Positions 19,858 through 46,099 are shown, numbered from the stretch's first letter. The stretch: 64,000 nucleotides of DNA from Solirubrobacteraceae bacterium (GCA_035540675.1 DATLGB010000223.1:4502-68501); one strand, 5' to 3'. Program-made: numbers and translations. The notes: a model not told the origin generated them from the sequence alone.

Positions 19858-20529
19858 CTACGACGCCGGCAACGGCAGCCGCCAGAAGGGGCCGGTGAGC
19901 CCGAGCCCGTCGAGGATCGCCTGGTTGGCGTCGCGCGTTCGCGGGCGCCAGTCCGGCGCGAGCCGGTCGCCCCACCAGGCATGGGCGAGCTCGCACAGCA
20001 GCGCCGCGCCGATCGTCGCGCCCGGCGGCCGGTCGCCGAGCCAGCGCGCCACGTGCTCCTCCGACCGGAAGAGGTTCATGGTGCTTCAGGTGAAGACGAT
20101 GTCCTCCCACCAGCGCGCGGCGGGCACGAGGCAGTGGAACAGCAGGTCCTCGCGGTCGGGCCGGCCGTCGCGGACCTCGATCGCGAGCGGCTCGCCGCAG
20201 TCGGGGCACGAGGTCTCGATGCGCCCGTCGGCGTGCAGCGCGGCGCAGACGCCGAACGCGTCCCAGGCGCAGTTGGCGTACCACCAGCGCTCGCGCGCGT
20301 GGACCCGGTAGGCCGTCGGCACCGCCGAGAACGGGTTGGCCATCCGCAGCTCGTCGGTCCCGGGGCTGAGCACGAGCGCGTGCGCGTCGTGCAGGCGCCG
20401 CCAGCTCGCGCGCACGGCGTCGCCGTCGCGGCCGGTGGCCGCGGCGACTTCGCGGATCGTCGGCGCGCGGCCGAGCGCCACGAACCGCTCGTAGGTGGCG
20501 TTGCGCACGTCGAGGTCGAGCGCCTGCAC
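19858..20529 (-). CDS. Alkylmercury lyase (MerB)-like protein with in-frame TGA (codon 148) at the position of catalytic Cys159 of MerB; probable selenoprotein (alternatively a pseudogene)
   Basis: Track ORFs 20086..21117(-) and 19858..20079(-) are in the same frame, separated by TGA-AGC-ACC. Joined reading: ...WWYANCAWDAF (MerB WCALDTL, Cys96/Asp99)...DIVFT-U-STMNLFRSEEHVARW (MerB SFCCHVHFFAS). GTG start at 20529. Total 223 aa, as expected for the family. Confidence 0.65.
20056..20073 (-). promoter_or_regulatory. Candidate bacterial SECIS hairpin (MerB-like gene)
   Basis: mRNA: UGA-N12-CUCUUCC[GGUC]GGAGGAG. 7-bp stem (one G-U), GGUC tetraloop. Confidence 0.55.
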
Positions 20530-20589
20530 CCCGCGACCATCCCACCCGTTCCCACCGCGCGCAAGGCGTGAAGGAATAGCCTGCGCGGG

Positions 20590-21378
20590 GTGAGCGAGCT
20601 TCTCGCCTCCGTCGACGGCGCGATCACCCCCGCCGGCCAGGCGGTCATTCCCGTCGCCGACGAGGGGCTCCTGCGCGGCGACGGCGCCTTCGAGGTCATC
20701 CGCCTCTACGGCGGGCGGCCGTTCGCCCTCGACGAGCACGTGGAGCGGCTCGGGCGCTCCTGCGAGGGCCTGAAGCTCCCCGTCGACCTCGGCGTCCTGC
20801 GGGCGGAGGTGGACGCCCTGCTCGAGGCCGGCGCGGTCGACGGGCTGCTGCGCCTGGTCGTCACCCGCGGCGGCCGCCGGATCGCGATCGTCGAGCCGCG
20901 GCCGCAGTACGGCGCCACGGCGCGCGTCGCGACCGTGACCTTCTCGCCGTCGCGGGTGCTCGACGGCCTCAAGACGCTGTCGTACGCCGGCAACATGCTC
21001 GCCCTGCGCATCGCCAAGGAGCAGGGAGCCGACGAGGCGCTGTTCGTGACCCCGCACGGCCGCGTCCTCGAGGGCACCACGTGGACGTTCTTCTGGGTGG
21101 ACGGGGGGCGGCTGCACACGCCGCCGCTGTCCGAGCGCATCCTGGACTCGATCACCCGCCGGCGCCTGCTGGAGGAGTGCGACGTCGAGGAGCGCATCTG
21201 CACCCTCGACGGCCTGCGCGCCGCCCAGGAGGCGTTCATCGCCTCGACGGTGCGCGAGGTCATGCCGATCGCGGCGGTCGACGACCGCGCGCTGCCGGAG
21301 GCGCCGGGGCCGGTCACCGCGCGGGCGGCCGAGGCGCTGCGGGCGCGCATCGAGCGGGAGCTCGGCGCCGCCCGGTGA
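20590..21378 (+). CDS. Fold-type IV aminotransferase (branched-chain aminotransferase / aminodeoxychorismate lyase family)
   Basis: EGLLRGDGAFEVIR, RLVVTRGGG-like, LEGTTWTFFWV. Confidence 0.8.
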   Translation: MSELLASVDGAITPAGQAVIPVADEGLLRGDGAFEVIRLYGGRPFALDEHVERLGRSCEGLKLPVDLGVLRAEVDALLEAGAVDGLLRLVVTRGGRRIAIVEPRPQYGATARVATVTFSPSRVLDGLKTLSYAGNMLALRIAKEQGADEALFVTPHGRVLEGTTWTFFWVDGGRLHTPPLSERILDSITRRRLLEECDVEERICTLDGLRAAQEAFIASTVREVMPIAAVDDRALPEAPGPVTARAAEALRARIERELGAAR

Positions 21379-22445
21379 GGGTCCTCACCGTCATCGGCAA
21401 CCGGCCCCAGTTCGTCAAGGCGGCCGCCGTCTCCGGCCACCTGCGCGCGGCGGCGACCGAGGTGATGGTCCACACGGGCCAGCACTACGACGACGAGATG
21501 TCGCGCGTGTTCTTCGACGAGCTCGGCCTGCCGCGGCCCGAGCACCGGCTCGAGGCCGGCGGCGGCTCCAACACCGAGCAGACGGCCCGCATGCTGCTGG
21601 CGGTCGGCGACCTGCTGCGCGCCGAGGCGCCCGACCTCGTGCTCGTCTACGGCGACACGAACTCCACGCTCGCCGGCGCGCTGGCGGCGGCGCAGGCGCG
21701 GGTGCCCGTCGCGCACGTCGAGGCGGGCATGCGCTCGTTCGACCGCTCGATGCCCGAGGAGCTCAACCGCGTCCTCACCGACCAGTGCAGCGACCTGCTG
21801 CTGTGCCCGTCCGAGGGGCCGGCGGAGAACCTGCGGCGGGAGGGCGCGCCCGGCGCGATCGCCGTCGTGGGCGACGTGATGGTGGACGTCGCGCAGCTCG
21901 TCGCCCCGCGGGCGCGCGCGCGGACGCGCGCGCTCGAGGAGCTCGGCGTGCGCAGCGGCGAGTACGTGCTGGTCACCGCCCACCGCGCCGGCAACGTCGA
22001 CGTCCCCGAGCGCCTCGAGAGGCTGGTGGCGCTGCTGGAGGCGCTGCCGCTGCCGGTCCTGCTGCCGCTGCACCCGCGCACCCGCGGCCGGCTGGCGGAC
22101 GCCGCGCTGCTCGCGCGGCTCGAGGCCGCGCCGGGGATCCGGCTGGCGCCGCCGCTCGGCTACCTGGACTTCACCGCCCTGCTGCTGCACGCGCGCGCGG
22201 TCCTGACCGACTCCGGCGGCGTGCAGAAGGAGGCCTACCTGGCCGGGGTGCCGTGCGTGACGCTGCGCGACACCACCGAGTGGGTGGAGACCGTGCAGGC
22301 CGGCTGGAACGTCCTGGTCGACCTCGACGCGGCCGCCGCGCTGGCGGCGCTCGAGCGGCCGCGGCCGGCCGAGCGCCCGCCGCTGTACGGCGACGGCCGT
22401 GCGGGCGAGCGCGTCGTGGCCGCTCTCGTAGGATCCCGCGCGTGA
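21375..22445 (+). CDS. wecB: UDP-N-acetylglucosamine 2-epimerase (non-hydrolysing)
   Basis: GTGA-coupled. VIGNRPQFVKAA, GQHYD, VYGDTNSTLAGALAA, AHVEAGMRS, TDSGGVQKEA. Confidence 0.9.
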   Translation: MRVLTVIGNRPQFVKAAAVSGHLRAAATEVMVHTGQHYDDEMSRVFFDELGLPRPEHRLEAGGGSNTEQTARMLLAVGDLLRAEAPDLVLVYGDTNSTLAGALAAAQARVPVAHVEAGMRSFDRSMPEELNRVLTDQCSDLLLCPSEGPAENLRREGAPGAIAVVGDVMVDVAQLVAPRARARTRALEELGVRSGEYVLVTAHRAGNVDVPERLERLVALLEALPLPVLLPLHPRTRGRLADAALLARLEAAPGIRLAPPLGYLDFTALLLHARAVLTDSGGVQKEAYLAGVPCVTLRDTTEWVETVQAGWNVLVDLDAAAALAALERPRPAERPPLYGDGRAGERVVAALVGSRA

Positions 22446-44731: not shown

Positions 44732-45336
44732 GCGGCGACCGCGAGCGCTGGAACGAGCGGCACGCCGCCGCGCTGGCCGCCGGGCGGGCGAACGGGCCGC
44801 CGAGCGCGTGGCTGCTCGAGCACGCCGGTGTCGTGGCGGCGCAGCCGCGCGGCCGCGCGCTCGACGTCGCGTGCGGCCTCGGCCGCAACGCGCTGCACCT
44901 CGCCGCGATGGGCTTTCGGGTTCTCGCCCTGGACGTCTCCGACGTCGCGGTCGAGCACGTGGCGCGGCGCGCGCGCGAGCGGGGTCTGGCGGTGGAGGCG
45001 CGACGGGTCGACCTCGGTCGCGAAGCGCTGCCGCCGGGACCCTTCGAGGTCGTCGTGGTCGCGTCCTTTTTGGACCGCCGCCTGCTCGGGCCGCTGGCGC
45101 GGGCGCTCGCCCCGGGCGGGCTGCTGCTCTACGACACGTTCCTGGCCGATGCGACGGCGACCTGCGGCCCGCGCGATCCCGCGCACGTCCTGCGGCCGGG
45201 GGAGCTCTCCGCGGCCTTCGCCGGCCTCGAGCGGCTGGATCTGCGCGAAGGCGCCCCGGCGCCCGGCGAGCGCGCGCGGGCCCGGCTCCTCGCCCGCCGC
45301 CGCGACGGGTTGCCGGTGTGTGTTCCAGACACGTAG
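44728..45336 (+). CDS. Class I SAM-dependent methyltransferase (TehB/TPMT-like)
   Basis: GTGA-coupled to the protease. WNERH...ALDVACGLGRNALHLAAMGFRVLALDVS. Confidence 0.7.
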   Translation: MSGDRERWNERHAAALAAGRANGPPSAWLLEHAGVVAAQPRGRALDVACGLGRNALHLAAMGFRVLALDVSDVAVEHVARRARERGLAVEARRVDLGREALPPGPFEVVVVASFLDRRLLGPLARALAPGGLLLYDTFLADATATCGPRDPAHVLRPGELSAAFAGLERLDLREGAPAPGERARARLLARRRDGLPVCVPDT

Positions 45337-45346
45337 AATCGCGCCC

Positions 45347-46099
45347 ATGAAGCTCGTCGTGGCCGGCAAGGGCGGCTCGGGGAAGACGTCCATCTCGGGG
45401 ACGCTGGCGCGCCTGCTCGCCCGCTCGGGCCGGCGCGTGCTGGCGATCGACGCCGACTCCAATCCGAACCTGTCGCTGACGCTCGGCATCCCGGCCGACC
45501 GCTTCAACTCGGTGCCCACGCTGCCGCGCGACCTGCTGCAGCGCACGCCGGATGGCGCACGGCTGTCGAAGTCGCTCGACGAGATCCGGTCCTCGCACTC
45601 CCTCGACGGGCCCGACGGCGTCAGCCTGCTCGTCATGGCCCACCCGCAGCACGCGGGCACCGGGTGACTGTGCTCCATGCACGCTACGGTCCGTAGCGTC
45701 ATCGAGGTGTCAGGCGAGGGTCCCGCGGACGTGACGATCCTCGACACGGAAGCGTCGCCGGAGCACCTCTCGCGCGGGACGGCGATGCACGCCGACGCGA
45801 TGCTCGTGGTCGTCGAGCCCTACTTCAAGTCGCTCGAGACGGGCCGGCGGATGGCGGCGCTCGGCACCGACCTCGGGCTGCCGCGCGTCGCGCTCGTGGC
45901 CAACAAGATGCGCGACGAGCGCGACGAGGCCGCCGTGCGCGAGTTCGCCGAGCAGCACGGGCTCGAGGTGGCGGGGACCATCCCCTTCGACGAGGCGATG
46001 CCGGCCGCCGAGCGCGCCGGCGTCTCACCGCTCGACCACGATCCCGGCGCGCCGAGCGTCGCGGCGATCGGCGAGCTCGCCCGGAGCTTCGTGCGATGA
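45347..46099 (+). CDS. CooC/AcsF-like MinD-family Ni-insertion ATPase with in-frame TGA (codon 107) replacing the first Cys of the CxC metal site; probable selenoprotein (alternatively a pseudogene)
   Basis: Tail of track ORF 44828..45667 and ORF 45677..46099 share one frame. Joined: MKLVVAGKGGSGKTS (deviant Walker A)...LLVMAHPQHAGTG-U-LC-SMHATVRSV...ILDTEASPEHLSRGT...VVVEP. 250 aa, typical CooC length. U-x-C aligns with CooC Cys-x-Cys. Confidence 0.7.
45681..45699 (+). promoter_or_regulatory. Candidate bacterial SECIS hairpin (CooC-like gene)
   Basis: UGA-N13-ACGCUAC(G)[GUC](C)GUAGCGU. 7-8 perfect bp, apical GGUCC/GUC loop. Confidence 0.6.

Follow-up and report, generated by a model that had tools for sequence, protein, structure and literature searches.

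The stretch of DNA analyzed here, referred to as the window, comprises 64,000 nucleotides (nt) of ~75% G+C from a Solirubrobacteraceae bacterium (GCA_035540675.1 DATLGB010000223.1:4502-68501, or G000:C223:4502-68501 in our numbering), whose draft assembly amounts to 3.4 Mb in 224 contigs and is 91% complete. Two of its genes, one encoding a MerB-like protein and the other a CooC-like ATPase, each contain a TGA that joins two open reading frames (ORFs) in one frame and that is followed by a short hairpin with GGUC in its loop. A preliminary description of the window had pointed to these two contexts, on opposite strands and in different genes, and both are present as described. The evidence set out below makes us highly confident that both TGAs are selenocysteine (Sec) codons, each accompanied by a Sec insertion sequence (SECIS) hairpin.

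The first gene (19858..20529, minus strand) would encode a MerB-like selenoprotein of the alkylmercury-lyase family of ~223 amino acids (aa), assuming a GTG start at 20529. The TGA at 20088..20086 (minus strand) corresponds to residue 147 (U147) in the motif F-T-U-S-T-M. When read through, the protein scores 92.5 bits against PF03243 (cut-off 27) and aligns to MerB2 (PDB 5C17, E=4.4e-8), where the catalytic Cys opposite U147 is that of G-G-T-C-K-Q-I-H-Y-F. The Cys/Asp pair is supplied further upstream by N-C-A-W-D, a C-x-x-D motif aligned with the first catalytic Cys; the protein keeps the equivalents of Cys96 and Asp99, with the TGA at the equivalent of Cys159. The candidate SECIS hairpin 1 (20056..20073, minus strand) has the sequence CUCUUCC-GGUC-GGAGGAG, with a 7-bp stem that includes one G.U pair. 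It follows a 12-nt spacer (20085-20074) and consists of a 5' arm (20073-20067), the loop (20066-20063) and a 3' arm (20062-20056), which leaves 19 nt between the TGA and the first loop G, and it codes for L-F-R-S-E-E. This hairpin is the minimum free energy structure (-19.6 kcal/mol over 45 nt, z=-2.5); a lower helix at this site (20084-20077 with 20053-20046) is a prediction only.

The second gene (45347..46099, plus strand) would encode a CooC-like P-loop ATPase of the MinD/ParA class, 250 aa in length, with Sec107 in G-T-G-U-L-C. PF01656 was found in the protein and the deviant Walker A motif GKGGSGKT is present. Its best solved relative is CooC1 (PDB 3KJE, E=1.3e-27, residues 1-217), and in this alignment U107 falls on Cys112 and C109 on Cys114 of the CXC metal motif (S-Q-C112-Y-C114), so that the TGA at 45665..45667 (plus strand) occupies the position of the first Cys of the CXC. 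The candidate SECIS hairpin 2 (45681..45699, plus strand), ACGCUAC-GGUCC-GUAGCGU, has a 7-bp stem and can alternatively be read as 8 bp with a GUC triloop; it codes for (H)A-T-V-R-S-V. It follows a 13-nt spacer (45668-45680) and consists of a 5' arm (45681-45687), a 5-nt loop (45688-45692) and a 3' arm (45693-45699), with 20 nt between the TGA and the first loop G. The common architecture that had been proposed for the two sites is therefore borne out, with spacers of 12 and 13 nt, 7-bp stems and GGUC loops. The public gene call on identical DNA splits the CooC-like gene into products of 106 aa and 140 aa, as had been anticipated for selenoprotein genes in this organism.

Such a pattern is rare in the genome and enriched in coding frames. 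A loose form, with a spacer of 9-16 nt, a stem of 6 bp or more and a loop containing GGTC, follows 146 of 47,636 TGAs that are not in a coding frame (0.31%) and 4 of 89 stop-free TGAs that are (Poisson P(>=4) = 2e-4). A strict form, with a spacer of 11-14 nt, a stem of 7 bp or more and the loop GGTC[N], matches at 13 of 48,394 TGAs. Of these 13, four lie in a coding frame, namely both window sites and a pair of FdhA genes, which encode a classical selenoprotein. The concern that the pattern might be just as frequent after random TGAs in such G+C-rich DNA is thus answered by a background of only ~0.02-0.3%.

Several observations nevertheless weigh against Sec at these sites. The other 9 of the 13 strict matches are out of frame or in noncoding-like sequence. 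Hairpin stability is unexceptional at 75% G+C: the two window hairpins have energies of -8.8 and -8.9 kcal/mol, and shuffling the sequences hardly impairs their folding (z-scores of -0.7 to -2.5; -2.5 and -1.75 for the window sites). At site 1, the conserved peptide LFRSEE accounts for part of the nucleotide conservation of the hairpin. The tRNA-Sec was not found in the organism's own 91%-complete, 224-contig assembly, and the case for Sec at both sites is one built from sequence. The meaningless out-of-frame matches and the weak folding scores speak for the alternative that the TGAs are inactivating nonsense mutations in pseudogenes, followed by chance hairpins in G+C-rich DNA. Because the z-scores are weak, folding energy was dropped as evidence, and comparative data were relied on instead. 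These were drawn from the best 80 loci per family in species-representative genomes and from relatives of the organism.

The comparative data speak clearly against decay. A stop codon stands at the Sec column in all 80 MerB-like loci (78 TGA and 2 TAG), which come from Gaiellales, Solirubrobacterales, Acidimicrobiia, Geodermatophilaceae and others, and no Cys form of the family was found among these 80 closest loci. The TGA and hairpin are both kept in 5/5 orthologs from relatives, at 48-74% identity. The core of hairpin 1 is nearly invariant across the 80 loci, and its 3' arm occurs as GGAGGAG in 33 of them and as GGAAGAG in 29. The latter arm uses a GAA codon and restores a Watson-Crick pair in the stem; GAA would be expected to be rare at this G+C content.

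In the CooC-like family the corresponding column is evenly divided, with 40 TGA and 40 TGC or TGT among the 80 loci, and relatives of the window gene at 65-77% identity include both Sec and Cys forms. Cultured carriers of a Cys form include Pseudonocardia kunmingensis and Amycolatopsis marina. The hairpin follows the codon. Among Sec forms the best hairpin has a median energy of -8.5 kcal/mol and 82.5% reach -7.5 kcal/mol or lower, whereas Cys forms have a median of -4.35 kcal/mol and only 10% reach that value (Mann-Whitney P=7e-12, not corrected for phylogeny); the hairpin is tied to the Sec forms and absent from the Cys forms. Over 36 distinct Sec-form sequences, 94.8% of the cells of the hairpin 2 helix are paired, both sides have changed in 5 of the 7 pairs, none of 500 shuffles was as good, and slid controls gave 6-54%. 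Sec forms occur in Thermoleophilia, Acidobacteriota, Gemmatimonadota, Chloroflexota, Ca. Entotheonella and Ca. Binatia. Stops at one column in many genera and phyla, protein conservation that goes on downstream of the TGA, covarying stems, and the placement of both TGAs at catalytic or metal-binding cysteines make inactivated pseudogenes extremely improbable. The same data uphold the earlier argument that coincidental nonsense mutations at two functional cysteines are unlikely. Nor do we give any real weight to a sequencing or assembly error as the source of the TGAs; the metagenome-assembled genome is a fragmented draft of 224 contigs, but independent assemblies produced in many separate studies show the same codon, as do two cultured strains.

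No other single argument for the reading of the MerB-like site by tRNA-Sec is as strong as a concerted change of codon and anticodon. In the cultured actinomycetes Geodermatophilus saharensis DSM 45423 (locus L151) and Blastococcus capsensis (L164), the Sec column of the MerB-like gene is TAG instead of TGA (locus position ~1929), and both loci retain an intact hairpin. The tRNA-Sec of these TAG genomes (L177 and L176) scores 65 bits and has the anticodon CUA, instead of the UCA of the window's genus; ARAGORN labels it 'tRNA-Pyl'. The MerB-like family therefore offers a clean natural control for Sec decoding, with UAG present exactly where the tRNA-Sec anticodon is CUA. Geodermatophilus and Blastococcus are said to be genera for which a natural recoding of UAG to Sec was reported. 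The arrangement of TAG, SECIS and CUA tRNA-Sec in these two genera contrasts with the standard UGA/UCA pair in the window's genus. PMC10778597, citing Mukai et al. 2016, describes natural UAG-to-Sec recoding with an anticodon-matched tRNA-Sec as published.

The co-switch also bears on a different explanation, that these are truly split genes or that read-through of UGA takes place without Sec (by near-cognate Trp or Cys, or by a reassigned UGA), the hairpin serving to stimulate read-through or re-initiation. An in-frame ATG does lie 9 nt (3 codons) after the TGA in both genes, the gene callers give two ORFs, and the missing selC would be consistent with a process that does without tRNA-Sec. 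However, TGA is the commonest ordinary stop here and ends most ORFs, and consequently there is no global reassignment of UGA. The Cys-form orthologs of the CooC-like protein are single polypeptides, the change from TGA to TAG coincides with the change from UCA to CUA in tRNA-Sec specifically, and FdhA carries the same hairpin. Moreover, the decoding genes are present, with scores that exceed the cut-offs for selB (323.6 bits; contig C157), selA (491.6 bits) and selD (236 bits, a match cut by a contig end). We regard split genes or non-Sec read-through as very improbable, if less so than pseudogenes or assembly errors.

The search for tRNA-Sec in the organism's own assembly combined ARAGORN, Rfam RF01852 and a regular expression for the anticodon and T-loop with Rfam scans of the regions surrounding selA, selB and selD and with BLAST queries from the selC genes of relatives, and none of these recovered it. 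The Rfam matches proved to be tRNA-Ser and two '???' calls by ARAGORN were false. A tRNA-Sec (60-68 bits, anticodon UCA) is found in 11/13 genus genomes, and the other genome that lacks it is the most fragmented of the set. In one relative, selC adjoins a gene homologous to the end of the organism's own contig C36, so the organism's own selC may fall within an assembly gap. The selD gene is spread over two contig ends (G000:C135:20401-21050 and C125:1-510), and the end of C135 repeats a short stretch in a different frame, which looks like an assembly artefact.

Other Sec genes in the genome show how far the pattern extends. It had been proposed that a genome scan should recover known selenoproteins such as FdhA and SelD. 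This holds for FdhA: two paralogs (at C93:7917 and C140:5222) read ...ENQARI-U-HSSTVPGLG..., and one of them scores 1616 bits against NF041513 and 953 bits against TIGR01553. Downstream of their TGA come a spacer of 11 nt, a stem of 7 bp and the loop GGUCU, with 18 nt from UGA to loop, and the stems differ between the paralogs by one compensatory pair (CGUCCCC/GGGGACG vs GGUCCCC/GGGGACC). SelD provides no such control, as it is a Cys form (GCGCK) and its gene is split over contigs C135 and C125. In a generalized scan, coding-frame TGAs qualified if their hairpin had an NGUN[N] loop, 6 bp or more in the stem and an energy no higher than -7.5 kcal/mol. This gave seven matches, six of them credible; the seventh, at C161:9080, was rejected as an intergenic, terminator-like sequence.

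Two additional Sec genes from the generalized scan have AGUU loops. One encodes a second CooC-like paralog (G000:C223:69596-70309) with its putative Sec codon at C223:69911, which would be position 65410 on the window's count, 1.4 kb beyond the window end. Its motif D-P-G-C-T-U-C-G is of the C-x-U type, with Sec on the second Cys of the CXC, in contrast to U-x-C in the window gene, and its hairpin (GCGGAGC-AGUU-GCUCCGC) begins 12 nt past the TGA; an ortholog in the relative G006 retains both TGA and hairpin. The other (G000:C118:78-614, Sec codon at C118:198) encodes a redox protein related to SelL (AhpC-TSA_2) with the UxxC motif W-L-R-H-Y-G-U-I-H-C and a score of 128.7 bits against NF040769 (cut-off 120). 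Its TGA is kept in five relatives at 37-61% identity, and the stems of this peroxiredoxin-like gene are fully exchanged (GGUGC/GCACC vs CGCCC/GGGCG) around a fixed AGUU loop. A third CooC-like paralog (52885-53613, minus strand) was rejected as a further Sec gene, since it has no CXC motif and no in-frame stop.

Because at least two Sec genes have AGUU loops, a scan for GGUC recovers only four of at least six Sec genes, and the view that GGUC is the determinant does not survive. Among the CooC-like orthologs the loops are CGUGC, GGUUC, GGUGC and GGUCC, and G-U is the sole invariant over the 36 Sec forms. The designation of the pattern as organism-specific must also be abandoned, since hairpins of the same kind occur in many genera and phyla and they fit the published bacterial consensus. 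That consensus (bSECIS, for bacterial SECIS; Zhang and Gladyshev), as presented in PMC13188914 and PMC8659212, places the loop 16-37 nt from the UGA and gives it a length of 3-9 nt, with G[G/U] close to its start. The window hairpins likewise lie in the ORF, just 3' of the UGA, their spacings of 19 and 20 nt fall within this range, and they also agree with the consensus in loop size, in stem length and in having an energy no higher than -7.5 kcal/mol. In the Escherichia coli SECIS, according to PMC8659212, the loop contains the determinants G23 and U24 and the stem-loop lies 11 nt past the UGA. The FdhA loops here also have G and U at positions 23 and 24. In contrast to the bulged U17 of the E. 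coli fdhF type, the 7-bp stems here are uninterrupted and lack this bulge. A further difference from the consensus is that this genome possesses two loop flavors, GGUC[N] and AGUU, and related lineages use CGUGC.

The mechanism suggested by these features is textbook bacterial Sec decoding, so there is nothing new in the SECIS pattern as such. The in-ORF hairpin 11-13 nt past the UGA, recognizable by its 7-bp stem and 4-5-nt loop with G-U at loop positions 2-3, would be bound by an elongation factor of the SelB type loaded with Sec-tRNA-Sec, and this binding would deliver Sec to the ribosome in place of termination. The predicted products are a MerB-like organometallic lyase homolog with Sec at the Cys159-equivalent and a CooC-like MinD-class ATPase with Sec as the first Cys of the metal-binding CXC. 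For gene annotation, the consequence is that at least six genes here (two FdhA, the SelL-related, the MerB-like and two CooC-like genes) are split or truncated by standard callers, and the same gene splitting affects hundreds of related soil Actinomycetota genomes.

The CooC-like protein probably represents a selenoprotein family that is new, and the MerB-like protein probably a new branch of a known kind. A CooC-type selenoprotein was not found in the 2022 and 2026 selenoprotein catalogues, in keyword searches of the open-access text that formed our literature base, or among the names of public homologs, which are called 'CO dehydrogenase maturation factor', 'AAA family ATPase' or 'ArsA-related P-loop ATPase'. 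The known relative on the MerB side is SaoL, the MerB-like selenoprotein of the SAO locus, whose Sec superposes on Cys159 (bioRxiv 10.1101/2022.07.06.499078). Membership of PF03243, Sec at Cys159 and the Cys96/Asp99 equivalents are common to SaoL and the MerB-like protein described here. However, the latter scores only 45.7 bits against the SaoL model NF040728 (cut-off 140), with a match limited to residues 31-122, and has F-T-U-S where SaoL has a CU dipeptide. SaoL is known from anaerobes, mainly Firmicutes, whereas the present family occurs in high-G+C Thermoleophilia, Acidimicrobiia and Geodermatophilaceae. No match to SAO families was seen among the annotated MerB-like neighbors or the clusters of the 80 loci, in which no search aimed at SAO genes was made.

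The CooC-like protein shares a MinD-class fold and a deviant Walker A with CooC1 of Carboxydothermus hydrogenoformans (3KJE) and with the MinD/Mrp-type HypB of Thermococcus (3VX3). The CXC motif of CooC1 is found at the same alignment columns, its first Cys being replaced by the putative Sec in the window gene and its second in the paralog. CooC1 is a Ni-insertion ATPase for carbon monoxide dehydrogenase (CODH), and the CooC-like gene likewise stands beside Ni-enzyme genes; in place of CODH, however, the neighbor here is a group 1h [NiFe]-hydrogenase. Ni-CODH (cooS/acsA) was not among the neighbors of the CooC-like gene (hydrogenase, hyp, NifU, Cys/His-rich ORF, PadR), and no genome-wide search for cooS was made.

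The genes around the CooC-like gene form a recurrent arrangement. A Cys/His-rich protein of 121 aa (46096..46461, plus strand; tail ...GECDENCWCHDSPEAAASCLEERSGHAHQH) overlaps the stop codon of the CooC-like gene; it has no confident Pfam match and no family assignment, and its homolog adjoins the CooC-like gene in 67/80 loci. It is followed by a PadR-family regulator (46445..46834, plus strand; PF03551 in the public gene call), a homolog of which is present in 61/80 loci. The trio of CooC-like, Cys/His-rich and PadR genes thus recurs in 61-67 of the 80 loci. Approximately 4 kb upstream of the CooC-like gene is a group 1h-type [NiFe]-hydrogenase (plus strand), with a small subunit at 37874-39283 and a large subunit at 39288-41189, recognized by the Pfam families NiFe_hyd_SSU_C, Oxidored_q6 and NiFeSe_Hases; among solved structures, the large subunit matches 5AA5 HofG best (E=4.7e-144). 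In ~33/80 loci, genes for hydrogenase subunits are found no more than 3 kb from the CooC-like gene, and in the window NifU and tetratricopeptide repeat (TPR) genes are also found nearby.

Hydrogenase maturation genes identified by Pfam matches occupy 30461..36462 on the minus strand. They encode a HypE-like protein (30461-31852), HypD (31546-32679) and HypF (34276-36462), and between hypD and hypF is an ORF (32676-34325) with HypC/HupF and SIS (sugar isomerase) domains, possibly a fused gene or else two genes that share a frame. HypA and HypB were not found in the organism's own assembly. The idea that the CooC-like ATPases replace HypA and HypB was dropped: HypB is encoded in 10/12 genus relatives, including genomes with CooC-like genes, and in view of this co-occurrence we do not claim a replacement.

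Sec in a CooC-type metallochaperone associated with clusters for high-affinity [NiFe]-hydrogenases would link selenium to hydrogenase-associated metal handling, and if this is true, hydrogenase metal handling would depend on selenium in many soil bacteria. We lean slightly toward the combined proposal that the CooC-like ATPase represents an undescribed and widespread selenoprotein family, encoded in the trio beside a group 1h (atmospheric-H2-type) hydrogenase, and that the MerB-like protein represents an almost obligately Sec branch distinct from SaoL, which has followed the recoding of UGA to UAG in Geodermatophilaceae. The roles of both proteins are suggested by homology and gene context.

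The surroundings of the MerB-like gene are less constant. Its annotated neighbors are tRNA-Lys, a GFO/IDH oxidoreductase, a hexapeptide transferase and an RDD protein; the tRNA-Lys (CUU) gene (19681-19753, plus strand) lies on the opposite strand, ~100 nt past the 3' end of the MerB-like gene. A conserved neighborhood was rejected, as these neighbors are not conserved and there is no mer operon. One protein cluster recurs beside the MerB-like gene in 30/80 loci. Two of the MerB-like loci depart from the rest: L152 has an extra in-frame stop in a conserved W-W (W-*), and L029 a frameshift after ~residue 167. These are possibly decaying copies or assembly errors.

Directly upstream of the CooC-like gene, at 44710-45336 (plus strand), is a gene for a TehB/TPMT-like S-adenosylmethionine-dependent methyltransferase; this adjacency is seen in 1/80 related loci and is therefore probably incidental. 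Downstream, positions 46967-58935 are occupied by a run of secreted-looking repeat-protein genes. Three of these have BNR/sialidase-like repeats, one of the three also has CWB2 cell-wall-binding domains, and another gene encodes a 942-aa RTX-repeat protein; the third CooC-like paralog is situated among them. On the other side of the hydrogenase maturation genes, an intein that carries a LAGLIDADG homing-endonuclease domain interrupts the gene for the replicative helicase DnaB (27675-30353, minus strand).

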